A stretch of DNA of 64,000 bases from positions 27,933 through 91,932 of the forward strand of contig JBBEAY010000017.1 of NCBI GenBank assembly GCA_040882605.1, in the 5' to 3' direction. A program made the translations under genes and the position numbers. Numbering within the stretch: position 1 is the stretch's first letter; the number at the start of each line of letters is the position of its first letter. The notes under the pieces are model-generated. The model was not told the DNA's origin and made no database searches. It saw nothing but the letters and a program-made list of their open reading frames with translations. Origin of the DNA: Actinomycetota bacterium. GTDB taxonomy: Bacteria; Actinomycetota; UBA4738; HRBIN12. Of the stretch, positions 29,025-57,384 are shown piece after piece.

Positions 29025-30056
29025 TTGGCCGAGATTCCGAACGCTACGGTCTCGTGTCGCAACGTATGGAAGGTCTACGGACCCAAGGCCGATCGCATCG
29101 TGGGTACGCCCGATGCAGACTTGCCGCGTCAGGAGCTGCTCGCCAAGACAGGGTGCGTGGTCGCCGTGCGCGACGTGTCGTTCGACGTCTCCCAGGGCGA
29201 GGTCTTCGTGGTGATGGGCCTGTCGGGCTCCGGCAAGTCCACGCTCGTTCGCATGCTGAATCGGATCCATGACCCGACCGCCGGCGAGGTGCTCGTCGAC
29301 GGGCAGGACGTGATGCAGATGAACGACGAAGAGCTGCGCCGAGTGCGCCGGACAAAGATCAGCATGGTGTTCCAGCACTTCGGACTGCTGCCGCATCGGC
29401 GCATCGTGGACAACGTTGCATTCGGTCTCGAGATCCAAGGGATGGACAAGGACGATCGCCTGGCGAAGGCGATCGAAGTGCTCGACGTGGTGGGTCTCGC
29501 GGGTTGGGGAGATCGGTTCCCCGACGAGCTCTCGGGCGGCATGCAGCAGCGAGTCGGTCTCGCCCGAGCGCTGGCCACCGACCCCGAGGTCATGCTGTTC
29601 GACGAGCCTTTCAGCGCACTCGACCCCTTGATCCGGCGGGACATGCAGAACGAGGTCCGCCGCCTGCAGAACGAGATGAAGAAGACGATGATCTTCATCA
29701 CGCACGACTTGGCTGAGGCGCTGAAGCTGGGCGATCGCATCGCGATAATGAAAGACGGAGTGTTCGTCCAGGTGGGTACTCCCGAGGAGGTCGTGGCCCA
29801 TCCGGCGAACGACTACGTGGCGGATTTCACGAAGGATGTGCCGCGAGCGCATGTGCTGACTGCTCGGGCGATCATGCGCCCTGTCAACGGGCACGGATCG
29901 GCCGACGGTCCTGTGGTCGGGCCTGCGACGGTCGTGCAGGAACTGATCCCGATGGTGGCCGACGCCGATCGCACGATCCGAGTTGTGGACGGCGACGATC
30001 TTCTGGGGTTGGTGGATCGCAGCGCCGTGATGGCCGCGCTGGTCGAGGACCGCTGA
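29025..30056 (+). CDS. Glycine betaine/proline betaine ABC transporter ATP-binding protein (ProV/OpuAA) with C-terminal CBS pair
   Basis: TTG start after GGAGGGGG. Walker [10 protein letters not shown], signature [15 protein letters not shown], Walker [12 protein letters not shown], and the [20 protein letters not shown] region are characteristic of the OpuAA/ProV subfamily. A CBS-like tail follows. Confidence 0.85.
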
Positions 30057-30057
30057 G

Positions 30058-32121
30058 ATGGCCGTCGCACCGCCTCGTTGGCGGGTCGTGGCCGATGGCG
30101 CTGCGACGCTGCCATTGGCACCGACGCAGCCGCCCAACGCATGGCCCAGGCGCATCGGCTGGGTCGCGCTCGCTGTCGTCGTCGCGGCGATCGGCCTGCT
30201 GTGGCTCTCACCCGGCTTTCCTGAGGGGTGGGTGGTGGATGTCACCGCCTGGTTCGACGCCTTCCGTGACTGGGCGATCCAGAACCGAAAGACGAGCCCC
30301 TTGTTCACCTACTTCCTGAGCCCGATCGAGGAGACCGTCGACACGCTCGTCGACGCGACCGTCACTGCGCTCGAGAGACTCACTTGGCTCGGGCTGGTGG
30401 CCGGCGCCGCCGCGATCGCCGGTGTGCTTGCCGGCTGGAAGATGGCCGCGCTCACGGCCGCCGGCGTGCTCTCTTTCGGGTTGCTCGGCGCGTGGGATGC
30501 CAGCCTCGAGACCCTCGCGCTCGTGGTCGTCTCAGTCGCGATCGCGGTGGGCATCGGGGTGCCACTCGGCATCTGGGCGGGACGCAGGCCGAAGGTCGAG
30601 CGGGTGCTACGTCCCATCCTCGACGCGATGCAGACGATCCCTGCCTATGCCTATCTGCTGCCTGCGGTGCTGTTGTTCGGCATCGGGAACCCACCGGCGC
30701 TGATGGCCACTCTTGCATTCGCCCTGCCGCCGGCGATCCGCCTCACCGCACTGGGCATCCGGGGCGTGCCGGCAAGTTCGCTCGAGGTCGCCACTTCATT
30801 CGGGTCGACCGAACGTCAACGGCTCCGGCTCGTGCAGGTTCCGCTTGCAAAGCCCTCGATCATGCTGGGTGTGAACCAAACGATCATGATGGCGCTCGGC
30901 ATCGTCGTCATCGCCGCGTTCGTCGGCGCCGGGGGACTTGGGCAGACCGTGCTCGATGGTTTGCAGCAGTTGAACGTGGGCGCGGCCCTCAATGGAGGCA
31001 TCGCGATCGTGGTGATGGCGATCGTGCTCGACCGAGTATCGACAGCGTGGAGTCAGCGCGACCGGCGCACGACGAAGCCCGCACGCATCGCGGGCCGATC
31101 GCTCACTCGACGTCAACTCGCGATGGGGGCTCTGCTCATCACGATCGTTGCGGTCGTGATCGGTCGCGAGGTGCTGCGTCAGCAGTCGTTCCCCGAGGGG
31201 TGGGAATCCTCGGTGGCCACGCCAGCCAATGCGATCGTGGACTGGTCGCAAGAACATCTCGGGAGCACCACGAGTGCGATCAGCGACTTCGTGCTCGTCC
31301 GCCTTCTCGACCCTCTCGAATCACTGTTCGTAGGGGTGCCATGGTGGATGATGGCCGGAGCGTTCGCGTTGATCGGGTGGCGGGTCTCGGGAAGGAGGCT
31401 GGCGATCGGGTCCTTCGCCTGCATCGCCGCCCTCGGGGTGCTCGGCATGTGGGATCTGTCGATGGGAACGCTTGCGCAAGTGCTCGTGGCGGTGGTGATC
31501 ACGCTGTCGTTCGCGATCCCGCTCGGCATCATCGCCGCCCGCAGCAACACGTTCGAGCGCATCTCGAAACCTATCCTCGACGCGATGCAGACGATGCCAG
31601 CCTTCGTCTACTTGGTGCCTGTGCTGTTCCTCGTCGAGCCAGGGCGGGTACCGGCGATCATCGCGTCGTTCATCTATGCGCTCCCGGTGAGCATCCGCCT
31701 GACGAATCTCGGGATCCGACAGGTGCCGGAGGAGATCGTCGAGGCTGGTCGATCGTTCGGGTCGACCTCCGGCCAGCTATTGCGCAAGGTGCAGTTGCCG
31801 CTGGCTCGGCCCACGATCCTGCTCGGGGTGAATCAGACGATCATGATGACCCTGTCGGTCGTCATCATCGCCGGGCTGATCGGCGCGGCGGGGCTCGGGC
31901 AGGAGGTCGTGTTCGCCCTCGGCAAGCAGCAGATCGGTCGCGGGATCGTCGCTGGCGTATGCATCCTGCTCCTTGCGGTCGCTCTTGACCGTATAACTCA
32001 AGCGATGGGGTCGGCGCCGCGCTCGATGCGGGGTCCCGTAGGCATGGGGCTCGGCTGGTGGTACCGCGTGTGTGCGATCACGAAGACGGTCGAAGACAAC
32101 CAAGGGAAGGAGAAGGGATGA
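30058..32121 (+). CDS. Glycine betaine ABC transporter permease, fused tandem ProW/OpuAB domains
   Basis: 687 aa. It contains two homologous permease halves, each with a binding-protein-dependent EAA loop ([15 protein letters not shown] and [15 protein letters not shown]). Confidence 0.85.
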
Positions 32122-33134
32122 GGAAGCGCAAGTTCGCGTTCGCGGCGGCGATGCTCGCGGTCACTACGCTCGTGCTCGCTGCATGCAGCGACGTCGAGGA
32201 GGGTGGCGCGACCACCGACACAGGGGGTGGCGGCACCAACGCCGCCGCGCAGTGCGCCGGTGACCCGATCACGATCGCGGTCAACCCATGGGTCGGCGCC
32301 GAGGCAAACGCCGCCGTCGCGCAGGCCGTGATGCAGAACGAGATGGGTTGTACGGTCGAGCTCCAGGAGATCAACGAGTCGGGGCAATTCCCGGCGATGG
32401 CCTCCGGCGATGTCGACGCGACCCTCGAAGTGTGGCCTTCCGGCCACCTGAAGGACCGTAGGGACTACATCGAGAAAGCAGGCGACGTCGTCGACGGCGG
32501 CGAGCTGGGGATCACCGGCAACATCGGCTGGTTCATGCCGTCCTATCTAGTCGAGGAGAACCCGGACCTCGCGACATGGGAAGGCTTCAAGGAGAACGCC
32601 GACGCCTTCGCGACCGCGGAGACCGGTGACAAGGGCCGCTTCCTCGGGGCTGACACGACGTACTCGATCTTCGACGAGGCGATCATCGCGAGCCTCGGCC
32701 TCGATCTCGAGGTGGTCTACAGCGGCTCCGAGGCCGCGTCGCTCGCGGCGCTCGACAAGGCGTACAACTCGCAGGAGCCCATCCTGATGTATTGGTGGAC
32801 CCCGCAATGGGCCAACGCCAAGTACGACCTGGTAGAGGTCGAGCTGCCCGCGTACAACGAGGAGTGCGGGGCCATCGCCGCCGAGGACCCCGACGCCGCG
32901 GCCGGCTACAACTGCGACTACGCCGAGGACGTGCTCTACAAGGCGTTCAGCGCTGGGCTCGAGACCAAGGACCCCGCGGCGTTCGAGTTCTTCTCGGCCT
33001 TCACCTGGACCGAGGAAGACCAGAACGCGGTTGCCCTCTCCATCCAAGAGGGGACCGACCCCGCCGAGGCTGCCCAGGCGTGGATCGACGAGAACGCAGA
33101 TGTAGTGGAGGGGTGGCTGCCCGCGGCCTCCTGA
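32118..33134 (+). CDS. Glycine betaine ABC transporter substrate-binding lipoprotein (ProX/OpuAC)
   Basis: Start at Met21 after GGAAGGAGAAGGG, with an ATGA overlap onto the permease stop. Signal peptide plus lipobox LAAC. The mature sequence has the aromatic-box pattern of betaine binders. Confidence 0.8.
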
Positions 33135-33214
33135 CAACCGAGGCTTTCACGACGATCGATGGGGGGCGGCCCGGCGGGTCGCCCCCATCGTTCCCGAAGG
33201 ACGGCATCTCTCTC

Positions 33215-34666
33215 ATGACGGTCGAGATCGATGGAGGCTCGCTCACGTCGGACGACCTCGTGCGCGTGGCTCGCGCCGGCGCGACCGTCACGCTCGCTCC
33301 GGCGGCAGCGGCACGCATGTCCAAGGGGCGCGCCGTGGTCGAGGCGGCGCTCTCCCGGGGTGACGAGGTTTACGGCCTCACGACCGGGGTCGGCGAGCGC
33401 AAGTCCGTGCGCCTCGACCCTGCGGAGATCGACTCCTACAATCGTCTGCTGATCCTGAATCACCGGGTCGGGCAGCAGCCCTTCGCGGAAGCCGACGTCG
33501 TGCGCGCCACGATGCTCCGGCTCGCCAACGGGCTCGCCGCCGGCACCGTCGGCGTAAGGCCGGAGCTCGCGCACCTCGTGGTCGACGCACTGAACTCGCG
33601 TAGCACGCCGGCCGTGCGCGCTCGTGGGTCGATCGGGCAGGCCGACCTCGCACCGATGGCCGACCTCGCCTATGGGCTGCTCGAGGCTTCCGCCTTCCGC
33701 CTGGGCGCGGGGGAGGGGCTCGCGCTGATCGACAACAATGCGTTCTCGTCCGGCATGGGGACGCTCGCGGCCTGGGATTGCGGGCGACTGCTCGACACGC
33801 TCGACGTGGCAGGCGCACTGAGTTTCGAGGCCTTCTCTGCGAACCTGTCGATCCTCGACGTCTCGGTGGCCGAGAGCCGGCCATTCCCGGGGGTCAAGGC
33901 CACCATCGAGCGGCTTCGTTCATTGCTGGAAGGAAGCGATCTCTGGAGCCCGGGCCCGCCACGCAACCTGCAGGATCCGCTCAGCTTCCGCACGATGCCC
34001 CAGGTCCATGGCACCGCCCGCGACATCTTCGACTTCGTGATGACACAGCTCGAGCTGGAGCTCAACGCTTCCCAAGGCAATCCCGTCGTCGACCCGGACA
34101 GGGACACGATCCGGGGGGCCGGCAACTTCGACGCCTTCGCGCTGGCGGTGGCGCTCGACCAACTGCGCGTCGTGTTGGCCACGGTGCTCACGAGCGCCGC
34201 GGAGCGTTGCCTCAAGCTGGTGCACGCCCCGTTCTCGGGGCTTCCCCACGGCTTGGCGGCGCGTGACGGACTCGCCGAGGACGCGTTCAACATGTTCGGG
34301 GTCTCGGTGCAGGCTTTCGCCGCCGAGGCCCGTGCGCTGGCGGCTCCCGTGTCGTACGACGTGGTCAGCACGACGCAGGCCGCGGGCATCGAGGACCGAG
34401 CCACGATGGCGCCGCTCGCCGCGAGCCGGCTCGCCGAGATGGTCTCGATCGCCCACGGGATCGTTGCGGTTGAGCTCTGTGTCGCGGCGCAGGGGGTCGA
34501 TCTGAGACCGGGGCGTCGGCTGGGCGCCGGTGCCGATCGCGTGCGAGACCTAGTGCGAAACGTCGTGGCCGCGCTCGGCGAGGGCGAAGCTGCTCCACAG
34601 GATCTCGAGCCGCTCGTCGACCTTGTGCGGAACGGGGCGTTCAGCTCGATCGCCGAGGGCGCTTGA
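33215..34666 (+). CDS. Aromatic amino acid ammonia-lyase (HAL/PAL) family homolog in which the MIO-forming Ala-Ser-Gly triad reads Gly-Gln-Ala
   Basis: It has the family N-terminus (LDGGSLT..DLVRVARAG), the YG.TTGVG block, and the downstream conserved regions (LIDNNAFSSGMG, QDPLSFR). At the position of the cofactor-forming GxxGASGDL it reads GSIGQADLAPMADL. Confidence 0.75.
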   Translation: MTVEIDGGSLTSDDLVRVARAGATVTLAPAAAARMSKGRAVVEAALSRGDEVYGLTTGVGERKSVRLDPAEIDSYNRLLILNHRVGQQPFAEADVVRATMLRLANGLAAGTVGVRPELAHLVVDALNSRSTPAVRARGSIGQADLAPMADLAYGLLEASAFRLGAGEGLALIDNNAFSSGMGTLAAWDCGRLLDTLDVAGALSFEAFSANLSILDVSVAESRPFPGVKATIERLRSLLEGSDLWSPGPPRNLQDPLSFRTMPQVHGTARDIFDFVMTQLELELNASQGNPVVDPDRDTIRGAGNFDAFALAVALDQLRVVLATVLTSAAERCLKLVHAPFSGLPHGLAARDGLAEDAFNMFGVSVQAFAAEARALAAPVSYDVVSTTQAAGIEDRATMAPLAASRLAEMVSIAHGIVAVELCVAAQGVDLRPGRRLGAGADRVRDLVRNVVAALGEGEAAPQDLEPLVDLVRNGAFSSIAEGA

Positions 34667-34669: not shown

Positions 34670-35128
34670 TCAGGCGCCGGTGAGCACGTCGTAGGGCTCG
34701 AACTCCAGCCGGTCGACGTCGGCCTGCTTGGTGAGTCGATGGAACTCGAGCGCGTACCGCTCGTACATCTGCTCGACGAGTGTGATGGCCTCGATGTGCC
34801 GAGGTCCCCGCGATGCCGTCCGCGCGTGTTCACGTGAATCCCAGATGCAGAAGGACAGGCACTCACGGGCGCTGGTGAGGGGGCCTCGGTAGTAGTGGAC
34901 GAGCCCGCGAGCCTGTGCGGCTTCCTCGGCCGCACGGAGGTCGTACTCCTCGAGAAGCCGCTCATCGGCGCCTTCACGCTGGGTCGATCGGAAGGCGACC
35001 AGGTACCACTCACCGGCCTCAACCCGTGGTGCGCAGCTCGTCCACGTGAATGCGTCGGGCAGCGGCAGGCTCGCGTAATCGCCCGTTGTCGGCGCCAGGT
35101 CCTCGAAGGTGCCGGTCGCGATCTCCAT
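34670..35128 (-). CDS. Hypothetical protein, unknown function
   Basis: 152-aa ORF, not low-complexity, and convergent with the HAL-like gene. It has its own AT-rich upstream region carrying a palindrome. No motif recognised. Confidence 0.5.
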   Translation of the reverse strand: MEIATGTFEDLAPTTGDYASLPLPDAFTWTSCAPRVEAGEWYLVAFRSTQREGADERLLEEYDLRAAEEAAQARGLVHYYRGPLTSARECLSFCIWDSREHARTASRGPRHIEAITLVEQMYERYALEFHRLTKQADVDRLEFEPYDVLTGA

Positions 35129-35287: not shown

Positions 35288-36064
35288 TCAGGGGGTGACT
35301 GCGTCGAGCTCTGCCGTCAGCGATCGCGCGGCGCGATGCAGCGCACCCGTGGCTCGATCCCGCCACGCTGAGCCGCACCTGGCGTACGGGCCCCACAGGG
35401 CAAGGGCGCCGACGATGCCGTCGCCGCGGAACACGGGCACCGCGATCGAGACAGAACCGTCGATGAGCTCGCCCTCACTGAACGCGATGCCGCTTTCCCT
35501 GATCTCATCGAGCCCCTTGCGCAGCGGCGTTTCGGACGGGGTCGTGGGAGTGATCGCTTCCAGCCCCTGAGCGATGACCTCCTCGACGACCTCGGGTGGC
35601 GCGAACGACAGCAGCACTCTGGAGCCCGCTCCCGCGTGCAGGGGATAGGTCCCCCCCGGTTCCAGAGCGACCCGGATGCCGTCGCGGGATTCGTGTTGAT
35701 GGAGGCACATGGCCGTCAGGCCCACTCGCCGCATCACCACCGCTGTCTCGCCCTGGCTCTCGACGAGCATGCTGAGAACGGGTTCCGAGAGGCGGATCAA
35801 CAGATCGCTCGTCACGTGTGAGCCCGAGCCGATGACGAGCTTCGGGCCGAGCCGGTACCGACCGTCGTGCCGGTCGACGAAGCCGAACTCGGTCAGCGTT
35901 CGCAGGTAGCGGTACGCCGTCGACTGGGGCATGTCGAGCAACATCGCGAGATCGTCCGCCCTGATCGCCCCGCGGTCGGCGATGACGAGCAGCAGCCGGA
36001 GGCCACGAGCGAACGACGTATCCTCCGCCGCTTCCTCGGGCGGATGATCGCGAGCCGTGGACAT
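35288..36064 (-). CDS. IclR family transcriptional regulator
   Basis: N-terminal wHTH (LRLLLVIADRGAIRADDLAMLLDMPQSTAYRYLRTLTEFGFV) and a C-terminal IclR effector domain. Start placed at Met57 (MSTARDH). Confidence 0.82.
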   Translation of the reverse strand: MSTARDHPPEEAAEDTSFARGLRLLLVIADRGAIRADDLAMLLDMPQSTAYRYLRTLTEFGFVDRHDGRYRLGPKLVIGSGSHVTSDLLIRLSEPVLSMLVESQGETAVVMRRVGLTAMCLHQHESRDGIRVALEPGGTYPLHAGAGSRVLLSFAPPEVVEEVIAQGLEAITPTTPSETPLRKGLDEIRESGIAFSEGELIDGSVSIAVPVFRGDGIVGALALWGPYARCGSAWRDRATGALHRAARSLTAELDAVTP

Positions 36065-36212
36065 GCCCACATTCTCTCCGACCGCGCGAGTCCCGGCCAC
36101 CGGATCGGGCCGTGGCCGGAGCGATCCTCGTTTCCGTGGGTTGCCGATATCGCAACGCGCCCGTTGTTCCTGCAACAGAGCCTGCGTACCGTTCCTTCGT
36201 ACGGCCACCGCG

Positions 36213-38772: not shown

Positions 38773-38823
38773 AATGCCAGAAGATCTGGACAGATCTGAA
38801 CAGAAGGTGTGGGGGGAGGCGAC

Positions 38824-39522
38824 ATGGCCGACGAAGAAGAGCTCGATCTCACCACGCTTCCCGACGACGAGCTCGTGAAGCAGATGCACGACGATCTCTA
38901 CGACGGGCTCGCCGACGAGATCTTCGAGGGCACCAACATCCTGTTGGAACGCGGGTGGGGCGCCGACAAGGTGCTGAACGATGCGCTCGTCGAGGGCATG
39001 CGCATCGTGGGCATCGACTTCCGCGACGGCATCTTGTTCGTGCCCGAGGTGTTGCTCGCGGCCAACGCGATGAAGGCGGGCATGGCGATCCTGCGCCCGC
39101 TGCTCGCTGAGACCGGCGCCGAGCGCATGGGCACCGTGGTGATCGGCACCGTGAAGGGCGACATCCACGACATCGGCAAGAACCTCGTCGCGATGATGCT
39201 CGAGGGCGCCGGCTTCGACGTGATCGACCTCGGCATCAACAACCCGGTCGAGAAGTACTTGGCCGCGCTCGAGGAGCATCAGCCCGAGATCCTCGGAATG
39301 AGCGCGCTGCTCACGACCACGATGCCCTACATGAAGGTCGTGATCGACGAGCTCGAGGCCAAGGGGCTCCGTGACAAGTACATCGTGCTGGTCGGCGGTG
39401 CGCCGCTGAACGAGGAGTTCGGCAAGGCGGTCGGGGCCGACGCCTACTGCCGTGATGCCGCGGTCGCCACCGAGACCGCGCAGGCGTTGGTGCTGGCCAA
39501 GCGCGCTGCGGCGGCGTCGTGA
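38824..39522 (+). CDS. Corrinoid (cobalamin-binding) protein of a methyltransferase system (MtgC/MtbC-like)
   Basis: N-terminal helical cap followed by a B12-binding Rossmann domain with the DxHxxG motif (GTVKGDIHDIGKNLV) and GMSALLTTT. Start placed at MADEEEL after GGGGGGAGG. Confidence 0.82.
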   Translation: MADEEELDLTTLPDDELVKQMHDDLYDGLADEIFEGTNILLERGWGADKVLNDALVEGMRIVGIDFRDGILFVPEVLLAANAMKAGMAILRPLLAETGAERMGTVVIGTVKGDIHDIGKNLVAMMLEGAGFDVIDLGINNPVEKYLAALEEHQPEILGMSALLTTTMPYMKVVIDELEAKGLRDKYIVLVGGAPLNEEFGKAVGADAYCRDAAVATETAQALVLAKRAAAAS

Positions 39523-39543
39523 TGCTCCAGGAAGGTGCCGACC

Positions 39544-39873: not shown

Positions 39874-39877
39874 ATCT

Positions 39878-48681: not shown

Positions 48682-49108
48682 GCTGCGCCCGACCTCGTCG
48701 CCCGTCGTCGTCGTCGTGCTCGCGTCGAGCGAGGCATGCGATCGAATCGTCGCGCCCGAAGGCGCGATCGCCATGCGCATCGCGCCCCGCGAGATGCTCC
48801 TCGTCGGTTCGGCCGACGCCGGCGCCGAAGTCTTGCGCGGCGCCCTCGACGAGCCGAGCGCTATCGTCGACGACGTTACCGACGGGTGGGCCATGTTCCA
48901 GCTCACCGGTGACGACGCTCGAGAGGCTTTCGCGCGCGTGTGCGAGCTCGAGCTTCCCGATGGCGGATGGGTGCAGGGCGAGGTTGCTCGCGCGGGCGCC
49001 AAGGTGATCGTGGAACCAGGCGGTCTCACGATCCTCGTTCCGGCGATGCTCGGTGCTCACGTCGAGGAGCGGATCCGTGCCGACGCCGCGGAGCTGCTCG
49101 CGCCATGA
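48674..49108 (+). CDS. soxG: Sarcosine oxidase gamma subunit
   Basis: 144 aa. Its position between soxA and soxB and its size fit SoxG. GTG start overlaps the soxA end. Confidence 0.65.
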   Translation: MAELRPTSSPVVVVVLASSEACDRIVAPEGAIAMRIAPREMLLVGSADAGAEVLRGALDEPSAIVDDVTDGWAMFQLTGDDAREAFARVCELELPDGGWVQGEVARAGAKVIVEPGGLTILVPAMLGAHVEERIRADAAELLAP

Positions 49109-50316
49109 CGGGTCTGTTCAAGCACCGGGAGTTCCTGTCCCAGCGCGACCTCAAAGCGCGCTACGACGTCGTGATCGTCGGCGGCGGCGTCAACGGGCTC
49201 TCGCTCGCCTTCCACCTCGCCGAGTACCACGGCATACGCGATGTGGCGGTGCTCGAGCGTTCCTACATCGGAAGCGGCGGAAGCGGCCGCAACACGCAGG
49301 TCCTGCGCGCCACCTACAACACGACCGAGACGGTGCCGCTGTACGCGACGAGCCTCGGCATGTACCGGACCCTCAGCCAGGAGCTCGACTACAACGTGCT
49401 GTTCAGCACGCAGGGCAACCTCGATCTCTGCCACTCGATCGACACGTTGCAGGTGGAGCGCGAGAAGGTGCTGATCCATCGTCAGTACGGCGTGGACACC
49501 GAGATGCTCACGCCCCAGCAGGTGCTCGAGGTGTGCCCGCTCGTCGATCTCACGGCCGGAGGCGAGCTTCCGGTCATCGGCGCGAGCTATCACCCTCCGG
49601 GCGCGTTCGCGCGCCACGACTCGGTGGTGTGGGGCTACGCGAGCGCCGCGGACCGCCGGGGGGTCGAGATCCATCAGGGCGTCGAGGTCGTGGGTGTCGA
49701 TGTCGTCGACGGTGAGTGCCGCGGCGTCGCGACGACCCGTGGGCCGGTGGCCGCAGGCCGGGTCGTGAGCGCAGTGGCCGGATGGTCGAGCGTGCTCGCG
49801 CGCCTGGCGGGGGTGAGGCTTCCGATCGAGACGATGGCGCTGCAGGCGTTCGTGACCGAGGCGTACACGCCGGTGCTGTGGGGTCTGGTCTCGTCGATGG
49901 ATCTCTACGTGTACACGCAACAAACCGCGCGCGGCGAGCTCGTGGTCGGGGCGGAGACGCTTCCCTACAACACCTACTCGACGCGCTCGACGTTCGAGTT
50001 CGCAGCGGAAGCCGCGAAGCGCACGATCCAGTTGTTGCCGTTCATGGCGAAGGCCCGGCTGATGCGTCAATGGACCGGCCTCTGCGACATGACCCCCGAC
50101 TCGTCGCCGCTGTTGGGGGAATCAGAAGTGCGGAACTTCTTCCTGATGTCGGGCATGGGCACGTGGGGGTTCAAGGGAGCGCCGATCTTCGGAAGAACGA
50201 TGGCCGAGATGCTCGCGACAGGCAGGGTCGATCCGCTGATCGCGCCGTTCGCTCCGGACCGGTTCCGCAACGATCGCATGGTGCCCGACGCCGCGAGCGC
50301 CGGCACCCACCGCTAG
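49105..50316 (+). CDS. soxB: Sarcosine oxidase beta subunit
   Basis: FAD motif YDVVIVGGGVNGLSLAFHL and the monomeric-sarcosine-oxidase-like fold of SoxB. ATGA overlap with soxG. Confidence 0.85.
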   Translation: MTGLFKHREFLSQRDLKARYDVVIVGGGVNGLSLAFHLAEYHGIRDVAVLERSYIGSGGSGRNTQVLRATYNTTETVPLYATSLGMYRTLSQELDYNVLFSTQGNLDLCHSIDTLQVEREKVLIHRQYGVDTEMLTPQQVLEVCPLVDLTAGGELPVIGASYHPPGAFARHDSVVWGYASAADRRGVEIHQGVEVVGVDVVDGECRGVATTRGPVAAGRVVSAVAGWSSVLARLAGVRLPIETMALQAFVTEAYTPVLWGLVSSMDLYVYTQQTARGELVVGAETLPYNTYSTRSTFEFAAEAAKRTIQLLPFMAKARLMRQWTGLCDMTPDSSPLLGESEVRNFFLMSGMGTWGFKGAPIFGRTMAEMLATGRVDPLIAPFAPDRFRNDRMVPDAASAGTHR

Positions 50317-50327
50317 TCCAGTCCAGA

Positions 50328-50909
50328 CTAGATGGTCGCGAGCACGCGGTCGATCAGGTAGTTCGCGAACGACGGACGTACGAGCACCCTCGTCGTGTGG
50401 GTGCGCTCGAGCAGGATGACCTGGGTTCTCGCGAAGAGCGTCTGTGCGCACATGCCCGCGCGCCACGAGGCCGGGTACAGGTCGATGGGACAGCCACTCG
50501 CGAGCAGCTCGTGACGATCCGGGCCACCCAGCTCGATCGCGACCCGGTTCGCGCTGACCTCGATCACTGAGCGGTGCAGGCTCGCTTCTTGATCCTTGGC
50601 GAGCGCGGTCTCGAGCTCCTCCACGATCTCGGGGCCGGTGTGCGGAGGGCCGAGCACCAGCCACTCATCTGGGCCGAGCCAGAGCACGGCGCGTGGCCCG
50701 GCTTCCGATGCGGTGTTGGGCTCGAGGGGAAGCGGGTACGGTGTGCGGCCGGCCAGCGAGGGGTCGAGTCGAAGCGAGACCTGTGCGAGGAACGGCATGT
50801 GCTCGAGGGTGACGCGACCGGCAGTGCGCTGGCTCGCCCGCGCGAGCTCGGCTGCGCTTGAGGCGAGCGGATCGCGCGCGTAGGACTCAGCCGTCACGGC
50901 GCGCTCCAT
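50328..50909 (-). CDS. soxG: Sarcosine oxidase gamma subunit (second copy)
   Basis: 193-aa ORF downstream of the second soxA. It overlaps the end of soxA by about 20 nt, so the true start is probably an internal GTG. The gamma-subunit call is supported mainly by size and position. Confidence 0.65.
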   Translation of the reverse strand: MERAVTAESYARDPLASSAAELARASQRTAGRVTLEHMPFLAQVSLRLDPSLAGRTPYPLPLEPNTASEAGPRAVLWLGPDEWLVLGPPHTGPEIVEELETALAKDQEASLHRSVIEVSANRVAIELGGPDRHELLASGCPIDLYPASWRAGMCAQTLFARTQVILLERTHTTRVLVRPSFANYLIDRVLATI

Positions 50910-53616
50910 CTTGATCGTAGAAGACGGGTGCGGTTACCTCGGCTTCGATAGGACCGTCGAGCGTAGGGGCTACGACGTGTCCACCGATGCGCTCGCGCCC
51001 AGCCGTGACCATGGCGAGCGCGAAGGTGCGACCGAGCTCCGGGCTCCGGTAGCTCGACGTGACGTGGCCGAGCATCGGCACGGGCGGCGCGGTGTCGGCG
51101 TGCTCGGGCGAGACCACCTGGGAGCCCTCGGGCAACCATCGGTCGGGGTCGACCGGCAACAAACCGACGAGCTGCTTGCGGTCGGGCCGCACCGTGTCAG
51201 GCCGGCGGAGCGAGCGCTTGCCGATGAAGTCGGAATCGTCCTTGCGCACTATCCACGACATGCCGAGGTCGTGCGGCGTAACGGTGCCGTCGGTGTCCTG
51301 CCCGACGATCACGAAGCCCTTCTCCGCGCGCAACACGTGCATCGACTCGGTTCCGTACGGCGTGAGTCCGAGGGGCGCGCCGGCGGCGAGCACGGCTTCC
51401 CACATCGCGGTTCCGTGATGGCCTGCGACGTTGATCTCGTAGGCGAGCTCACCGCTGAAGCTCACACGCGCGACTCGGGCCGGCATGCTCGCGACCTCAC
51501 CCTCGCGCCACGTCATGAATGGGAACGCCGCCGCGTCGAGTCCGATGTCGGTGCCGGCCGCGGTGAGCACCTCGCGCGCCTTCGGTCCGTTGACGGCGAT
51601 CGTCGCCCACTGCTCGGTCACGCTCGTCGCGTACACCCGCAGATCGGGCCACTCCGTCTGCAGCCATTCCTCCACGTGGTCCATAACTTTGGCGGCCCCG
51701 CCGGTCGTGGTCGTGATCAGGAAGCGGTCCTCGGCCAGGCGCATCGCGACGCCGTCGTCGAAGACCATGCCGTCGAGACCGAGCATGAGGCCGTAGCGGA
51801 TCGAGCCCACCGCGAGCGTCGACATGCGGTTCGTGTAGAGCCGGTCGAGGAACGTCGCCGCGTCGGGGCCGACCAGCTCGATCTTGCCGAGCGTGGAAGC
51901 GTCCATCACCCCGGCCGCGCGGCGCACGGCGAGGCACTCTCGCTCGACCGCGCTGTGCAGCGGCTCGACACCTTCCGGGAAGTACCAGGGGCGCTTCCAC
52001 TGGCCGACGTTCTCGAAGACGGCTCCCCGTTCGACGTGCAGATCGTGCATCGGGGTCGTGCGGATCGGATCGAGCAGCACCGGTCCGCGGTCGACGCCGG
52101 CGAGCACCGAGTAGGGGACCGGCGTGTACGGGGGCCGGCTGTTCGTGGGGCCCTGTGCCCCGGGCCCCTCGCCCCACGCCTGGTTCACGATGGCCGTGGT
52201 GAGTGCGCCGCTCGTGCGGCCTTGGTCGATCGCGGTGCCGATGTACGTCGCGCGCTTCACGTGCTCCGTCGAGCGGAGCTCGTGGCCGACCGCGTCGAGC
52301 ACGTCGGCGACGGTCGAGTCGCGCTGCAGATCGACGAAGTGCTCCGAGAGGTCGTCCGCGGGCGTGTACCAATAGGGAACGCTCGACGGCACCTCACCGG
52401 CCGCCGCGCCGACGACCGTGAGCCATGACGGGCCGCGGCCACCGGAAGGGCCGCCGGGCCGGGCGTTCGGGGCGTCAGGCACGAAGCAGGTGCGGTCGTC
52501 GTCCCATCGCAGACCGCCGCCGATGCCTCGCCAGAGCTGCGCTGTCGGGTTCCAGCCCCCGGAGACGAGCACCAGATCAGCATCGAAGGTCTCGGTCGCA
52601 CCGCCGGGCCCCGCGATCGTGACCGAACGGACACCCTGATCACCGTCGGCGGCCACCACGGCGCACGCAGTGCGCACATCGATGCCGACGGCTCGAGCGG
52701 CGTCGGTAGCTTTGCCGCCTTCCCCCGGGTCGACGATCGTGGCGATCTCGAGTCCCTTGGCTGTGAGCGCCGTCGCCGCCTCGTGCCCGGCGTGGTTCGT
52801 GCTGAACACGACGGCGCGCTCGCCCGCCAGCACGCCGAAGCGATCGGCGAATAGGAGCGCGGCCGAGGCGAGCATCACGCCGGGCAGGTCGTTGCGGGCG
52901 AACGCGATCGGGCGCTCATGCGCGCCGCTCGCGAGCACGACTCGCCCCGCACGCACATGGTGCACACGCTCGATCGGAGTCGACCGTTCGTACACCACGA
53001 TGTATCCGTCGTCGTAGACGCCGAGCGCGGTGGCGTCGGTGAGCACCGTGACCTCCGAAGCCGATGCGAGGGCGCCGCTGGTCGTCGCGATCCACCCCAG
53101 CGCCGGCTCGCCGTCGACCTCGTCACCGCTCGTGGCTGTGCCGCCCGTCCACGACCGCTCGTCGACGAGCATCACGCGGTCTCCCGCCTGTGCGGCTTCG
53201 AACGCAGCTCGCAGCCCCGCCACGCCGGCCCCGATCACGAGCGTCTCGACGTGCGCGTGCCGATGCCGTGCGGCAGGCGCGCCCGTGTCACCGGGGGGCA
53301 GACGCCCAACGCCAGGCCGGGGCATCGCGACCAACCCGTCGACGAGCGGCACCCCCGTCGCCGGCACGATCGGCCGGAACACGGGCGCCGACAGCTCGAC
53401 GAACGCGTTCGGTTCCTCGACGCCGGCCGCGAACACGCCGCGTGGCCGGCTTCGCAGAGGCGAGCGGGCGACCACATGGACGCCGTTCGCGATCAGCGCG
53501 CTCGCAAGCGTGTCGCCCGCGAAGCCCTCGCACGATCGGCCGTCGAACGTGAAGGCGAGCGGGCGCGACCGGTCGATGCCGTGCCCGGCCGGCGCGGCGA
53601 GCCGCCGCCCCGTCAC
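50887..53616 (-). CDS. soxA: Sarcosine oxidase alpha subunit (second copy)
   Basis: 909 aa. Rossmann motifs (LVIGAGVAGLRAA) and a C-terminal GcvT-like domain. ATGA overlap with the upstream soxD. Confidence 0.85.
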   Translation of the reverse strand: MTGRRLAAPAGHGIDRSRPLAFTFDGRSCEGFAGDTLASALIANGVHVVARSPLRSRPRGVFAAGVEEPNAFVELSAPVFRPIVPATGVPLVDGLVAMPRPGVGRLPPGDTGAPAARHRHAHVETLVIGAGVAGLRAAFEAAQAGDRVMLVDERSWTGGTATSGDEVDGEPALGWIATTSGALASASEVTVLTDATALGVYDDGYIVVYERSTPIERVHHVRAGRVVLASGAHERPIAFARNDLPGVMLASAALLFADRFGVLAGERAVVFSTNHAGHEAATALTAKGLEIATIVDPGEGGKATDAARAVGIDVRTACAVVAADGDQGVRSVTIAGPGGATETFDADLVLVSGGWNPTAQLWRGIGGGLRWDDDRTCFVPDAPNARPGGPSGGRGPSWLTVVGAAAGEVPSSVPYWYTPADDLSEHFVDLQRDSTVADVLDAVGHELRSTEHVKRATYIGTAIDQGRTSGALTTAIVNQAWGEGPGAQGPTNSRPPYTPVPYSVLAGVDRGPVLLDPIRTTPMHDLHVERGAVFENVGQWKRPWYFPEGVEPLHSAVERECLAVRRAAGVMDASTLGKIELVGPDAATFLDRLYTNRMSTLAVGSIRYGLMLGLDGMVFDDGVAMRLAEDRFLITTTTGGAAKVMDHVEEWLQTEWPDLRVYATSVTEQWATIAVNGPKAREVLTAAGTDIGLDAAAFPFMTWREGEVASMPARVARVSFSGELAYEINVAGHHGTAMWEAVLAAGAPLGLTPYGTESMHVLRAEKGFVIVGQDTDGTVTPHDLGMSWIVRKDDSDFIGKRSLRRPDTVRPDRKQLVGLLPVDPDRWLPEGSQVVSPEHADTAPPVPMLGHVTSSYRSPELGRTFALAMVTAGRERIGGHVVAPTLDGPIEAEVTAPVFYDQDGARRDG

Positions 53617-53900
53617 CGAGCCGAGCCTTCCGGGGGCGGTTCCTCGCCCACCCGGTAGGAGGCGCCGATCTCATTGGTCGCCGTGTTCCGTGTGAGGTTG
53701 AACCAGCGGCGGCAGCCGGCAGTGTGCATCCATCGTTCGGACCACCATCCGCGCGGGTTGTCGCGCATGAACAGGTAGTCGGCCCACTCCTCGTCGGAGA
53801 GCGACTCGGGGTCCGAAGGGTAGGCGATGTGGGCTTGGCCACCGTAGCGGAACTCGATCTCATCGCGTGGTCCGCACCACGGGCAGGGGATCAAGAGCAT
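53613..53900 (-). CDS. soxD: Sarcosine oxidase delta subunit (second copy)
   Basis: MLLIPCPWCGPRDEIEFRYGG is the canonical SoxD N-terminus. Confidence 0.85.
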   Translation of the reverse strand: MLLIPCPWCGPRDEIEFRYGGQAHIAYPSDPESLSDEEWADYLFMRDNPRGWWSERWMHTAGCRRWFNLTRNTATNEIGASYRVGEEPPPEGSAR

Positions 53901-53904
53901 GCGG

Positions 53905-54230
53905 TCACCGCCGTCCTTCGTCGAACGACGCGACCAGGAGCTTCGGGGCGGTCATGCGCCAAGCCTCGACGATCAGCTCGCGCACCTCGCCGCTGTCGAC
54001 CTTCGACAGCACAGCCCCAACCCAACCGCTCGGGCCGACATAGGCGGCGCGAACCACGCATCGGCGTCCATCGCGATGAGAGCCCGCTGCTCGTCGTGTA
54101 CCGACTTGATCCACGCCCGCCGCTCGTGCTCGCTGAATGTCATGAACATCTTGTCCCGCACGCGGAACGTCGCCGTCTCCCAGGTCTCGCGCTCTTCCGC
54201 CTCAGGAAGCGAGAGGGCGAACGCGCGCAC
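53905..54230 (-). pseudogene. MmcQ/YjbR-family (DUF419) gene split by an apparent frameshift, lying between soxB and soxD
   Basis: The N-terminal half (ALSLPEAEERETWETATFRVRDKMFMTF...DAWFAPP) and the C-terminal half (YVGPSGWVGAVL...ELIVEAWRMTAPKKL) of a YjbR-like protein lie in two different reading frames, joined near 54060. This is either a real frameshift or a sequencing indel. Confidence 0.5.
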
Positions 54231-54261
54231 GGTCGACGCTCGGATGCCCACGCCCGCATCC

Positions 54262-55461
54262 TCAGTGCGCGACGGCGGCCGCGCCGTGCTCGTCGATGAG
54301 GGCGCCGGTCGTGAAGCGGGCGAGCGAGAATGGCCTCGCGAGGGGACCCGGCTCACCGTTCGCGATCGTCTCGGCGTAAATCCAACCGGAGCCCGGCGTT
54401 CCCTTGAACCCGCCGGTGCCCCATCCGCAATTGATGAACAACCCATCGATCGGAGTCCGGTCGACGATCGGTGAGGCGTCGGGGCAGACATCGACGATGC
54501 CGCCCCACGTTCGGAGCACCGAGGCGTGGGCGAACATCGGGAACAGCTCGAGCGCCGCAGCCATCTGGTGCTCGATCACGTGGAACGATCCGCGCTGGCC
54601 GTAGCCGATGTAGGCGTCGATGCCGGCGCCCATGACGAGCTCGCCCTTGTCGGCCTGCGACACGTACACGTGCACTGCGTTCGACATGACCACGCAGTCG
54701 AGCACCGGCTCGTACAGGGCGCTCACGAGCGCCTGCAACGGATGCGACTGCACCGGGAGCCGCAACCCGACCATCGACGCGAGCACACTCGTGTGCCCGG
54801 CGGCGGCGAGCGCGACCTTCCCGGCGCGGATCGTGCCGCGCGAGGTCTCGACGCCTTCCACTCGGCCGCCGGCGCCCCGCACGAACCCCGTTACCTCGGC
54901 GTGTTCGACGATGTCGACGCCGAGGCGGTCGGCGCCGCGCGCATACCCCCACGCCACCTTGTCGTGGCGGGCGACGCCGCCGCGACGCTGCAACGTTCCC
55001 CCGAGCACCGGGTAGCGCACGTCGGGCGAGGTATTCACGACGGGCGCGAACGCTTTCACACCGTCGGCGTCGAGCCATTCCGCGTCGACGCTGTTCAGCC
55101 GGTTCGCCTCGACCCGTCGCATGCTCGACCGAACGTCGCCGAGGTCGTGCGCCAGGTTCAGCACGCCGCGCTGGCTGAACTGCATGTCGAAGCCGAGCGT
55201 CTCCTCGAGCGCTTCCCAGAGCTTCAGGGAATGCTCGTAGATCTCGGCCGACTCGTCCCATAGGTAGTTCGACCGGATGATCGTGGTGTTCCGCGCCATG
55301 TTGCCGCCGCCGAGCCAGCCCTTCTCGACCACGCAGACGTCGGTGATGCCGTGGTGTGCGGCCAGGTAGTAGGCGGTGGCCAGCCCGTGACCCCCTGCGC
55401 CGACGATGACGACGTCGTAGGCCGGCTTCGGTTCCGCGGTACGCCAATAGCGCTCAGCCAT
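54262..55461 (-). CDS. soxB: Sarcosine oxidase beta subunit (second copy)
   Basis: Trimmed to Met131 (MAERYW...). FAD motif [19 protein letters not shown]. About 50% identical by eye to the soxB on the + strand. Confidence 0.85.
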
Positions 55462-55510: not shown

Positions 55511-55546
55511 CGCACACGGTTGCGCACGAGATCGGAGCGTTGCGGC

Positions 55547-56338
55547 ATGCGAGACGACAAAGAGAGCAGCGGGAACCTCCAGTCGGTGCGCCGGGCGATC
55601 CGCGCGCTCGAGCTGATCAGTGAGCACGGCGAACTCGGCGTGACTGAGCTCGGCCGCAAGCTCGAGGTGCACAAGGCGACCGCTTCACGGCTGATGACGA
55701 CGCTCGCCGAACGCGGGTTCGTTGAGCGCGATCCGATCTCGGAGAAGTTCCGGCTCGGGTTCGGATTGATCTCGCTCGCCGGTGCGGCCGTCGGCGGCAA
55801 CGATCTCGTGCGCGCGGCGCGCCCGATCCTCGACGATCTCGCGGAGCGCACACGCGAGACGGTGAACCTCGGCGTGCTCTCGGGGGAGTCGGTCGTCTAC
55901 GTCGATCAAGTCACCGGGACGTGTTCGATCGTGAGCGTGAGCTGGGTCGGACAGCGCACGCCGTTGCACTGCACCTCGAACGGCAAGGTGCTGCTGGCGT
56001 TCGCCACCGAGGCCGAGCGCGATCGTCTGCTGCGGGGGCCGCTTCCACGGCTCACCCCACGCACCATCACCGACGTGCGGAAGCTTCGCACGCAGCTCTC
56101 GGAGATCCGAACCCGCGGCTACGCCCAGACGCTGGAAGAGCTCGAGAAGGGATTGAACGCCGTGGCAGCGCCCGTGCGCGGCATGAGCGGCGACCTCGTC
56201 GCTGCGCTCAGCGTGTCGGGGCCGGCCTTCCGCATGCGAGCGGTGGACCTTCCTCGTTTCGGAAGGTTCGCGGCTGACTCGGCGCTCGCCATATCGAGGC
56301 GGCTCGGCTACGTCGACCGGGGTGTGCGGGCGGTATGA
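55547..56338 (+). CDS. IclR family transcriptional regulator (second)
   Basis: wHTH ([43 protein letters not shown]) plus an IclR effector domain. Divergent from the second sox operon. Confidence 0.85.
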
Positions 56339-57384
56339 GCGCGTCGCCGATCGCGTGGGACGCTCAGCGCGCCGAGATTCCGACCTTGCTCGACGCGATC
56401 GGCCGGACCCCGCTGGTGCGTTTGCAACGTGTAGCGCCTCCCGGCGTGGAGGTGTTCGCCAAGGTGGAGTGGTACGGCCCGACGGGATCGGTGAAGGACC
56501 GCATCTACGCCGCGATGCTCGCAAGAGCCGAGGAGCGCGGAGACCTCAAGCCCGGCATGACGATCATCGAGTGCACGACCGGCAACGCCGGGATCGCGTG
56601 CTCGGCGGTCGCGGCGATCAAGGGCTACCGGTGCACGATCGTGATGCCCGAGGGCATGAGCAACGAGCGCAAGACGATGATCAGGGCCTACGGCGCTGAC
56701 CTCGTGCTCACGCCCGGCGCCGGCACCGATATCGACCTGGCGCTCGCGAAGATGCGCGAGATCGTGGCCGCCGACCCCGACAGGTATTTCTTCCCGGGGG
56801 AGTTCGAGAACCCCGACAACCCCGAGGCGCAGCTCGCGAGCGGCGAGGAGATCTGGGAGCAGACCGGTGGTCGCGTCGACGCGGTCGTCGGCGCCCAGGG
56901 CACGGGCGGATGGATCAGCGGGGTCGCACACGCGCTCAAGGCTCGCAACCCGTCGGTGCTCGCCTTCGCGGTCGAGCCGGCCGAATGTCCGCTGATCACC
57001 GATCACACCTGGGGCACCCACGGCGTGCCCGGCATCGCCGATGGCATCGTGCCGGCGAACCTCGATCTCGCCGCGATGGACGGCATCGTCACAGTCTCCA
57101 CCGAGGAAGCGCTCGTGACCGCGCGGCGTCTCGCGCGCGAGGAAGGACTCTTGTGCGGCCCCTCGTCGGGCATCAACGTGGCGGCCGTGCACAAGGTGAT
57201 CGATCATCATCCGGAGCTACACCGCGTCGTGACCGCGATCTGCGATACCGGACAGCGTTACCTGTCGGGTGAGCTCTACGGCGAGAAGCTCGAGGTCGAA
57301 GAACCCGAGCGCGACCACACGCTCGACCCCGACACCGTCACGGCGATCGAGGCACATCGCGACCGCCTCGAGTTCATCTCGTAG
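56335..57384 (+). CDS. PLP-dependent cysteine synthase family enzyme (CysK/CysM-like)
   Basis: PLP-lysine motif GSVKDR, glycine-rich loop GTGGWISG, and the IECTTGNAGIA block. ATGA overlap with the IclR stop, so the two are translationally coupled. Confidence 0.78.
   Translation: MSASPIAWDAQRAEIPTLLDAIGRTPLVRLQRVAPPGVEVFAKVEWYGPTGSVKDRIYAAMLARAEERGDLKPGMTIIECTTGNAGIACSAVAAIKGYRCTIVMPEGMSNERKTMIRAYGADLVLTPGAGTDIDLALAKMREIVAADPDRYFFPGEFENPDNPEAQLASGEEIWEQTGGRVDAVVGAQGTGGWISGVAHALKARNPSVLAFAVEPAECPLITDHTWGTHGVPGIADGIVPANLDLAAMDGIVTVSTEEALVTARRLAREEGLLCGPSSGINVAAVHKVIDHHPELHRVVTAICDTGQRYLSGELYGEKLEVEEPERDHTLDPDTVTAIEAHRDRLEFIS

Follow-up and report, generated by a model that had tools for sequence, protein, structure and literature searches.

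A contiguous gene cluster predicted to degrade glycine betaine to glycine by an aerobic, cobalamin-dependent route in an uncultured soil actinomycete

Introduction

The locus considered here raises the question of whether one contiguous block of genes accounts for the whole path from glycine betaine (GB) to glycine, and which of its genes belong to that path. The block occupies positions 29025-57384 of a 64,000-nucleotide stretch of DNA (positions 27,933 to 91,932 of contig JBBEAY010000017.1, GenBank assembly GCA_040882605.1, Actinomycetota bacterium), and this whole stretch is hereafter called the window. The host is an uncultured soil actinomycete, in which the cluster is chromosomal, native, and catabolic. 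In a preliminary description made from the sequence, the block was read as a dedicated catabolic island that takes up GB, degrades it to glycine, and sends all three methyl groups to the tetrahydrofolate (THF) pool. In the present analysis, it was concluded, at a probability of approximately 0.78, that the cluster uses the cobalamin-dependent aerobic MtgBCD route to degrade GB, via dimethylglycine and sarcosine, to glycine.

This route has a recent precedent. By genetics and proteomics, Mausz et al. (PNAS 2025; PMC12478193) showed that a module of this kind demethylates GB aerobically in Ruegeria pomeroyi. The Ruegeria system consists of MtgB, MtgC, MtgD, RamA, and DUF1638 together with MetF2, which was proposed to oxidize methyl-THF, and the genes for the later steps from dimethylglycine and sarcosine are often co-located in other taxa (PMC12478193). 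The pathway itself was already described in 2025, and the present cluster is a further example of it.

Methods

Third-position GC frame plots served to call the genes, whose start codons were then refined. The window was uniformly high in GC (~68%), so that raw lists of open reading frames (ORFs) were very redundant. Gene assignment was made by Pfam and NCBIfam profile searches. Reference genomes were scanned with the MttB protein, which gave at least 595 relatives, and a tblastn presence matrix was built over 80 MttB loci. Individual loci are cited by number (L001 and so on) where they have to be told apart.

Gene content and proposed route

The block was found to hold 25 genes, about 20 of which fit betaine uptake and the stepwise demethylation of GB to glycine (Table 1). 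Gene content and domain architectures were observed directly, and the following route is proposed from them. A ProU/OpuA-type ATP-binding cassette (ABC) importer would take up a quaternary ammonium compound, and an MtgB-like MttB homolog would move one methyl group of GB to a Co(I) corrinoid protein, leaving dimethylglycine. A pterin-binding methyltransferase would hand this methyl group on to THF, a RACo activase would re-reduce the oxidized corrinoid, and an adjacent enzyme resembling methylenetetrahydrofolate reductase (MTHFR) would convert methyl-THF to methylene-THF. Dimethylglycine oxidase (DMGO) would then yield sarcosine, and an orthodox SoxB-D-A-G oxidase (set 2) would yield glycine, both delivering the one-carbon unit as methylene-THF via their GcvT-like domains. 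The earlier proposal of a complete route with all methyl groups passing to THF is plausible from this gene content, namely from the corrinoid module with its MTHFR-like protein and from the GcvT-like domains of DMGO and SoxA.

Nearly every gene of the earlier inventory was recovered and, outside the first sox operon, in the order given there. Three small genes had been missed (the 152-aa ORF, the PF13769 gene, and the YjbR-family gene of Table 1), and the order of the first sox operon had been given wrongly. Moreover, five elements of the block are accessories that the route does not need, namely a lyase of the histidine ammonia-lyase (HAL) family without the 4-methylideneimidazole-5-one (MIO) group, the 152-aa ORF, sox set 1, the YjbR gene, and the PALP gene.

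Corrinoid methyltransferase module

The MttB homolog is a 519-aa ORF with no in-frame stop, and it matched PF06253 at 746 bits over profile positions 1-500; it was therefore taken as non-pyrrolysine. It scored 241 bits against the pyrrolysine-type MttB model, under the cutoff of 525. Among solved structures, it gave 706 bits to the uncharacterized 4yyc and 404 bits to MtgB of Desulfitobacterium hafniense (2qne/9yce). In that enzyme, a 2026 structural study identified Y97, R312, H348, and F356 as the four GB-binding residues (PMC13080624). The first three align with identical residues in the window protein (Y135, R349, and H385) and the fourth with a Gly, so that the residues support GB specificity but do not prove it.

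The remaining components were also recovered. The best NCBIfam model of the corrinoid protein was "glycine betaine-specific corrinoid protein MtgC" (209 bits, under the cutoff of 370), the pterin-binding methyltransferase scored above the cutoff of NF005719 (344 vs 259 bits), and the activase was AcsV-like (384 bits). The module shares with the MtgB (DSY3156)/MtgC/MtgA system of D. hafniense (2qne, 9yce; PMC13080624) the superfamily and fold family, the three-component logic, and the expected methyl-THF product, whereas D. hafniense is an anaerobe and the context in the window is aerobic and oxidative.

The neighborhoods of the MttB homologs in cultured bacteria were informative on the substrate. 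In Azoarcus KH32C, the homolog (69.5% identity) lies beside folD, a gene for a choline-binding protein, betA, and betB. In Paracoccus methylovorus, the homolog (66%) lies beside genes for a B12-binding protein, DUF1638, MTHFR, a methyl-THF:cobalamin methyltransferase, an ASKHA activase, and carnitine dehydrogenase. These neighborhoods support GB as the MttB substrate, and GB is accordingly retained as the supported candidate.

Compared with R. pomeroyi DSS-3, the window shares the non-pyrrolysine MttB-family enzyme, the separate corrinoid protein, the pterin methyltransferase, the RamA/RACo activase, and the adjacent MTHFR paralog. The two systems differ in setting and in detail. Ruegeria is a marine proteobacterium with scattered genes, whereas the genes here form one contiguous cluster in a soil actinomycete, where the dimethylglycine step is assigned to an Arthrobacter-type oxidase and the regulators are of the IclR type. 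In addition, no match to DUF1638, which is present in the Ruegeria, Phaeobacter, and Paracoccus systems, was found among the window proteins with Pfam or NCBIfam, and the window held no gene for the homocysteine-binding S-methyl_trans protein (MtgE).

A PF13769 ("Virulence_fact") gene lies between the genes of the corrinoid protein and the pterin methyltransferase, and a homolog was found in 38 of the 80 MttB loci, across phyla. The protein looks like an unrecognized component of the aerobic corrinoid module. As a separate observation, the activase and MttB genes, which overlap by 4 bp in the window, were called as a single 1190-aa product in an 85%-related genome (L081, 17517-21089); this product may be a real fusion or may reflect an indel in a long-read assembly.

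MTHFR-like protein

The MTHFR-like protein gave a weak Pfam match (PF02219, 37 bits). Its best solved relative was 7xg9, at 122 bits vs 28 bits to canonical MetF. The 7xg9 structure is S6MTHFR of Sphingobium lignivorans SYK-6, the founding "type 4" MTHFR, which oxidizes CH3-THF downstream of THF-dependent demethylases (PMC11868366). Both S6MTHFR and the window gene sit by a THF-dependent demethylase system. A homolog of the window gene adjoins MttB in 31 of the 80 loci, and because of this gene context and the analogy with MetF2, the protein is predicted to run from methyl-THF to methylene-THF. Assignment to type 4 by three marker residues was attempted and failed, all three being different; the comparison covered Leu48, Arg78, and Pro268 only, the full motifs being given as a figure in PMC11868366.

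Dimethylglycine and sarcosine oxidases

The oxidative steps rest on close relatives of characterized enzymes. The DMGO homolog is a single chain with an FAD oxidase domain, an FAO_M domain, and a GcvT-like folate domain, and it gave 736 bits to the Arthrobacter globiformis enzyme (1pj5), with residues 5-834 aligned to 5-827. In sox set 2 (50328-55461), the genes run in the order soxB2, yjbR, soxD2, soxA2, and soxG2 on the minus strand. SoxB2 scored above the cutoff of TIGR01373 (623 vs 529 bits) and gave 639 bits to 2gag_B; SoxD2 was likewise above its cutoff (TIGR01374, 128.7 vs 116.5 bits), while SoxA2 (TIGR01372, 1011 vs 1164 bits) and SoxG2 (TIGR01375, 87 vs 144 bits) were below theirs. 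By its sequence, set 2 is assigned as an orthodox heterotetrameric sarcosine oxidase. The full-length similarity to A. globiformis DMGO (1pj5) and to the Corynebacterium and Stenotrophomonas sarcosine oxidases (1vrq/1x31 and 2gag) was directly observed, as was the same domain and subunit make-up, including the GcvT-like folate domains.

In sox set 1 (45834-50316), the order is D-A-G-B and no subunit reached the score level of an ortholog. SoxB1 gave 389 bits against TIGR01373 (cutoff 529) and 324 bits to 1vrq_B, SoxA1 gave 510 bits against TIGR01372 (cutoff 1164) and carries a GcvT folate domain, and SoxD1 gave 59 bits against TIGR01374 (cutoff 116.5). The short SoxG1 was 66% conserved in L001 and L003, with weak similarity to SoxG2 (E = 4e-4) and to GCV_T. 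Set 1 is classed, by architecture, as a divergent paralog within the family. Two soxBDAG-type oxidases had been described earlier, and two SoxA/B/D/G sets are indeed present, although the first is divergent and differently ordered. Compared with the Corynebacterium and Stenotrophomonas sarcosine oxidases, the locus has a YjbR insertion in one set and an extra divergent D-A-G-B set with a shortened gamma subunit.

Several smaller features were noted around these genes. The YjbR gene between soxB2 and soxD2 (PF04237, 37.3 bits vs a cutoff of 30.1) is kept in L001, L003, and L004 and absent from L006 and L017, and it is probably unrelated to the route. The two sox operons converge at 50316-50328, with 11 bp between the stop codons and no recognizable terminator. 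The gap between the MTHFR-like gene and soxD1 (45405-45834) measures 430 bp, compared with ~140 bp in L003, and it contained an imperfect palindrome (45612-45639), no convincing ORF, and no Rfam match.

Conservation of the cluster in relatives

The closest MttB relatives (94-83% identity) came from metagenome-assembled genomes of uncultured soil Actinomycetes, followed by Gaiellales/Thermoleophilia, Chloroflexota, and Proteobacteria. The core genes (those for the corrinoid protein, the PF13769 protein, the pterin methyltransferase, RACo, and the MTHFR-like protein) had homologs no more than 10 kb from MttB in 31-52 of the 80 loci, depending on the gene, and in three phyla. Homologs of the corrinoid protein, the pterin methyltransferase, and the activase lay near MttB in 40-52 loci. 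The synteny was directly observed: the corrinoid core is linked with DMGO and the sox2 operon in L001, L003, L004, and L006, and the end formed by IclR2, PALP, and an unrelated Zn-peptidase was seen only in L004 and L006, the sequences of L001 and L003 stopping earlier. The synteny search suggested in the preliminary description therefore came out in favor of a conserved DMGO-sox2 block, with a conserved IclR2-PALP end in two relatives.

The proposal that the HAL-like enzyme, the PALP enzyme, and both sox sets all take part in the route was not supported. The lyase, which has no MIO, was found together with the 152-aa ORF and IclR1 only in L001 and L081. Sox set 1 was found only in L001 and L003 and is absent from L004 and L006. 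The PALP enzyme has no evident role; it scored below the cysK cutoff (320 vs 351 bits), and its gene overlaps iclR2 by 4 bp.

Weighing of the proposed route

Several points weigh against the proposed route, and they concern the methyltransferase, the companion proteins, and uptake. To our knowledge, no MtgB of the aerobic clade has been assayed in vitro. In the MttB homolog, a Gly aligns with F356 of D. hafniense MtgB, with a Trp four residues upstream, and the F356L variant of the D. hafniense enzyme has a Km raised several hundred-fold (PMC13080624). The PF13769 protein is found instead of DUF1638, and Leu48, Arg78, and Pro268 of S6MTHFR are replaced by Ser, Met, and Thr in the MTHFR-like protein. 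At the uptake end, the binding protein reached 44-48 bits against the ChoX and ProX models, far under their cutoffs, and its best solved relative was the trimethylamine N-oxide-binding TmoX (4xz6, 121 bits). Moreover, the gene located 3' of the importer encodes a lyase predicted for a different betaine.

Importer and MIO-less lyase

The points on uptake concern the first genes of the cluster. The ATPase scored above the TIGR01186 proV cutoff (370 vs 326.6 bits), and its gene begins with TTG, preceded by a GGGGG ribosome-binding site. The fused permease was above the cutoffs of both TIGR03416 (ChoW) and NF008196 (ProW), with matches at residues 60-327 and 394-657. For the binding protein, assignment to GB, choline, or proline betaine was attempted and dropped, as the NCBIfam and PDB scores were too low. 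The lyase gene starts 80 bp 3' of the binding-protein gene, in the same orientation. The importer substrate may be a betaine other than GB; in particular, it may be a histidine betaine, because the lyase gene adjoins and the binding protein is not assignable to GB.

The lyase scored under the HAL (hutH) cutoff (308 vs 524 bits). Its best solved relative was ergothionase (183 bits), while true HALs gave 152-175 bits, and because the scores to both were similarly low, the lyase looks like a separate clade. At the position of HAL GSVGASGDLAPL, the lyase has GSIGQ-ADLAPM, and the Ala-Ser-Gly triad is absent; therefore, the protein cannot form MIO and is not an ammonia-lyase. The "HAL-like enzyme" of the preliminary description is correct as to family, and any ammonia-lyase function is to be dropped. 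The lyase keeps Tyr53 (catalytic), His83 and Glu414 (imidazole binding), Gln277 and Arg283 (carboxylate binding), and Phe329, and it has Leu at HAL Tyr280, as ergothionase does. The thiolate-binding Lys384 of ergothionase is Val in the lyase. This residue pattern held throughout an alignment of 121 sequences, made up of the window protein and its 120 closest homologs, among which the Lys384 position was occupied by V, H, I, or A. Because Lys384 is missing, the pattern favors a betaine without sulfur over ergothioneine. Ergothioneine was thus disfavored as the substrate, given also that no thiourocanate-pathway genes were found in the window.

The residues expected of a trimethylammonia-lyase were all found, namely a HAL fold without MIO, the catalytic Tyr, the Gln/Arg pair, and Leu at Tyr280. 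The lyase is therefore probably a trimethylammonia-lyase acting on a histidine-type betaine, as predicted from these residues. MIO-deficient lyases reportedly require a trimethylammonium leaving group. From this combination of residues, Bertsova et al. predicted and then demonstrated a histidine betaine trimethylammonia-lyase (bioRxiv 10.1101/2025.08.13.670108). The ergothionase of Treponema denticola (6s7j) and Swoo_3913 of Shewanella woodyi (bioRxiv 10.1101/2025.08.13.670108) have the same HAL fold without Ala-Ser-Gly and keep the catalytic Tyr and the carboxylate and imidazole residues. Like the histidine betaine enzyme Swoo_3913, the window lyase has no Lys at the ergothionase thiolate position. 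The Shewanella enzymes are located in the periplasm and coupled to respiration, whereas the window lyase gene sits among catabolic genes. It is linked to a betaine importer gene here and, in other genomes, to genes for MetE-like proteins and homocysteine S-methyltransferases.

The contexts of the lyase homologs were heterogeneous. Where the homologs are named, they are called histidine or aromatic amino acid ammonia-lyase; Gaiellaceae is the sole organism named. In L083 (4566-11473), a 57%-identical homolog lies beside an SBP_bac_8 ABC importer, followed by urocanase, two amidohydrolases, and an IclR gene, and this neighborhood of urocanase and hut-type amidohydrolases fits a urocanate-forming reaction. 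In three soil loci, one of them from Gaiellaceae (L086, 6856-9437; L087, 6901-9443; L088, 6916-9434), the lyase gene shares 4 bp with the end of a gene for a ~365-380-aa protein with the MetE C-terminal domain (Meth_synt_2), and in L086 and L087, S-methyl_trans (homocysteine methyltransferase) genes also follow the lyase. Two further homologs come after an acyl-CoA synthetase gene.

The 152-aa ORF lies between the lyase and iclR1 genes. It is 76% conserved in L001 and accompanies the lyase in both L001 and L081, where the L081 homolog bears the precomputed family label PF27604. Searches of the local NCBIfam library and of the local Pfam library, which lacks PF27604, gave no match.

Alternative explanations

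The explanation that competes best with the proposed route is that two units have merged. The importer and lyase (29025-34666) would then serve a histidine-derived betaine, such as hercynine or a relative, giving urocanate and trimethylamine, and GB would enter by another transporter. We regard this as a serious contender with somewhat less than even odds. It is compatible with the route as proposed for 36259-55461 and differs only in what the first five or six genes would do. The short distance between the binding-protein and lyase genes on one strand speaks for such a unit, as does a binding protein not assignable to GB. The lyase itself has the pattern of a histidine betaine lyase, lacking the triad and Tyr280, with Val for Lys384 and the HAL imidazole and carboxylate residues kept, and it belongs to the MIO-deficient enzymes said to need a trimethylammonium group. 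The one homolog beside urocanase and hut-type amidohydrolases points the same way, but the window itself has no urocanase, other hut gene, or trimethylamine-consuming enzyme, the homolog contexts vary, and the clade has no characterized member. Moreover, in L003, an OpuAC gene (57% identity) immediately precedes the DMGO genes and no lyase is present, so that an importer is linked to the GB genes by itself. The L003 sequence also has a 28%-identical DMGO-like paralog (1273-3168) between the OpuAC gene and the orthologous DMGO gene, at the place of the lyase, the 152-aa ORF, and IclR1.

A bolder version of the histidine betaine reading is that the lyase clade is a large trimethylammonia-lyase group of soil bacteria (Gaiellaceae, Actinomycetota) acting on hercynine or a related histidine betaine, co-transcribed here with a ProU/OpuA-type importer, so that the locus would be a two-substrate betaine hub. 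This version is tentative, and we consider it rather unlikely.

With regard to the MttB substrate, the corrinoid module might act on another quaternary amine (proline betaine, carnitine, gamma-butyrobetaine, choline, or hercynine), and the DMGO-like and Sox-like oxidases might act on the matching N-methyl products. The specificities within the MttB superfamily are diverse, several paralogs per genome are common, F356 is not conserved, and the cluster carries a divergent sox set and a betaine lyase, all of which would fit another amine. However, DMGO and SoxB2 resemble dimethylglycine- and sarcosine-specific enzymes closely and over their full length, the equivalents of Y97, R312, and H348 are conserved, and the closest cultured MttB homologs adjoin GB-producing genes (betA and betB; carnitine dehydrogenase). 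Another amine was therefore judged improbable, and GB remains the preferred substrate.

Finally, it is very hard to credit that the corrinoid module is mainly a split methionine synthase (MtgC/D/E) rather than a catabolic system: in Ruegeria and Phaeobacter, methionine synthesis also requires MtgC and MtgD (PMC12478193), but the window lacks an S-methyl_trans (MtgE) gene and the module, with its MttB and MTHFR-like genes, lies between the DMGO and sox genes.

Genomic setting

The block had been described as an island, and this part of the description was not borne out. The GC content of the cluster (68.4%) matched that of the flanks (67.7%), tetranucleotide usage was correlated at r = 0.993, and the suggested composition check against the flanking DNA thus gave nothing distinctive. 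The tRNA scan gave no hit, no integrase or transposase gene was found in the flanks, and there was no flanking repeat. Moreover, flank synteny in relatives continues past both borders: in L081, the enoyl-CoA hydratase, acyl-CoA synthetase, and EamA genes precede the cluster in unchanged order, and the Zn-peptidase gene of the downstream flank is kept in L004 and L006. The corrinoid core is spread over several phyla, and Proteobacteria carry it on megaplasmids, so that ancient lateral spread of the module is likely, and the accessory content (the HAL-like gene, the 152-aa ORF, and IclR1; sox set 1) differs among close relatives; nevertheless, given the composition, the flanks, and the synteny, horizontal acquisition of the block as a genomic island is highly improbable.

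The upstream region (23679-28868) encodes a flavin amine oxidase, an enoyl-CoA hydratase, an ADP-forming acyl-CoA synthetase, and an EamA exporter. These genes keep their synteny with the cluster in L081, and the region may be another small catabolic unit.

Regulators and intergenic DNA

The cluster has two IclR-family genes, iclR1 being divergent from the DMGO operon and iclR2 from soxB2. The iclR1 gene was found at high identity only in L001 and L081, and IclR2-like genes were present in 29 of the 80 loci. The IclR1/DMGO gap was aligned with L001 and L081 (three genomes), and three blocks were invariant. The first, GGTTGCCG..CGCAAC, is the palindrome at 36140-36156 (GTTGCCGATATCGCAAC). The second, CCCGTTGT.CC.GCAAC, overlaps a putative -35 hexamer, over which a second GTTG-N6-CAAC site lies, ~10 bp downstream of the palindrome. 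The third, GTACCGT, is a TANNNT-type -10 hexamer. Two matches to GTTGC-N3-12-GCAAC were found in the window vs 0.43 expected, one of them inside the methyltransferase gene, and 10 of 100 shuffles reached two. The palindrome count is by itself weak evidence, and the support comes from the conservation across genomes.

In the soxB2/iclR2 gap, no inverted repeats were found; the gap has a conserved promoter-like TTGACA-17-TAGCGT and two direct GTTGCG repeats. Operator palindromes had been proposed at both IclR genes, and they hold for IclR1, where the site is conserved in relatives, and not for the soxB2/iclR2 gap. From these arrangements, the IclR regulators probably control the DMGO-corrinoid and sox2 operons. 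Searches for cobalamin, THF, and glycine riboswitches gave no Rfam match at the gathering threshold in the whole window. Consensus promoter and terminator scans over 28.5-58.5 kb gave counts at or under the shuffle expectation and are uninformative in high-GC DNA.

Table 1. Genes and one intergenic element of the cluster, with positions in the window and the matches on which each assignment is based.
Feature	Coordinates	Strand	Basis
ABC transporter ATPase, ProV/OpuAA type	29025..30056	+	Pfam ABC_tran; TIGR01186 proV
Fused double permease, two ProW/ChoW-like halves, 687 aa	30058..32121	+	Two BPD_transp_1 domains
OpuAC-family substrate-binding protein	32118..33134	+	PF04069, 160 bits
MIO-less HAL-family lyase, predicted trimethylammonia-lyase	33215..34666	+	PF00221
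152-aa conserved protein	34670..35128	-	High third-position GC; conservation in relatives
IclR-family regulator 1	35288..36100 (start 36064 or 36100)	-	HTH_IclR + IclR_C
Operator-like palindrome GTTGC-N7-GCAAC	36140..36156		Invariant in three-genome alignment
Dimethylglycine oxidase (DMGO), 837 aa	36259..38772	+	DAO, FAO_M, GCV_T, GCV_T_C
Corrinoid protein, MtgC-like	38824..39522	+	B12-binding + B12-binding_2
PF13769 small protein	39535..39873	+	PF13769, 50 bits
Methylcorrinoid:tetrahydrofolate methyltransferase, MtgA/MtgD-like	39878..40861	+	Pterin_bind; NF005719
RACo/RamA-type reductive activase	40858..42882	+	Fer2, RACo_linker, Raco_middle, RACo_C_ter
Non-pyrrolysine MttB-superfamily methyltransferase, MtgB-like	42879..44438	+	PF06253, 746 bits
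MTHFR-family protein, MetF2-like	44521..45405	+	PF02219, 37 bits
SoxD-like delta subunit, set 1, divergent	45834..46082	+	PF04267
SoxA-like alpha subunit, set 1, divergent	46087..48681	+	Fer2_4, SO_alpha_A3, GCV_T, GCV_T_C
Short SoxG-like gamma subunit, set 1	48674..49108	+	Conservation; weak similarity to SoxG2, GCV_T
SoxB-like beta subunit, set 1, divergent paralog	49105..50316	+	TIGR01373; 1vrq_B
SoxG gamma subunit, set 2	50328..50909	-	PF04268; TIGR01375
SoxA alpha subunit, set 2	50887..53616	-	TIGR01372 + domains
SoxD delta subunit, set 2	53613..53900	-	TIGR01374
YjbR-family small gene	53973..54251	-	PF04237
SoxB beta subunit, set 2	54262..55461	-	TIGR01373; 2gag_B
IclR-family regulator 2	55547..56338	+	IclR_C 162 bits + HTH_IclR
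PALP enzyme, cysteine synthase family	56335..57384	+	PF00291

Conclusions

Two leads arise from the accessory genes. One is a soil clade of MIO-less HAL-like proteins, to which current pipelines give the name "histidine ammonia-lyase"; the other is a divergent enzyme of the sarcosine oxidase type. If the locus is a two-substrate hub, GB would be demethylated via B12 and THF, and a histidine betaine would be cleaved to urocanate and trimethylamine. If the reading of the lyase clade is correct, its MetE-like and homocysteine S-methyltransferase neighbors would hint at an undescribed link between aromatic betaine cleavage and methyl-group salvage.

The main value of the cluster lies in confirmation, in that the aerobic cobalamin-dependent GB route appears here in compact form, with its own regulators, in uncultured soil Actinomycetota. 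All steps lie on one 21-kb stretch, which offers a clean gene set for heterologous work. Moreover, the corrinoid core also occurs in Chloroflexota, and B12-dependent osmolyte turnover is therefore expected to be more widespread.

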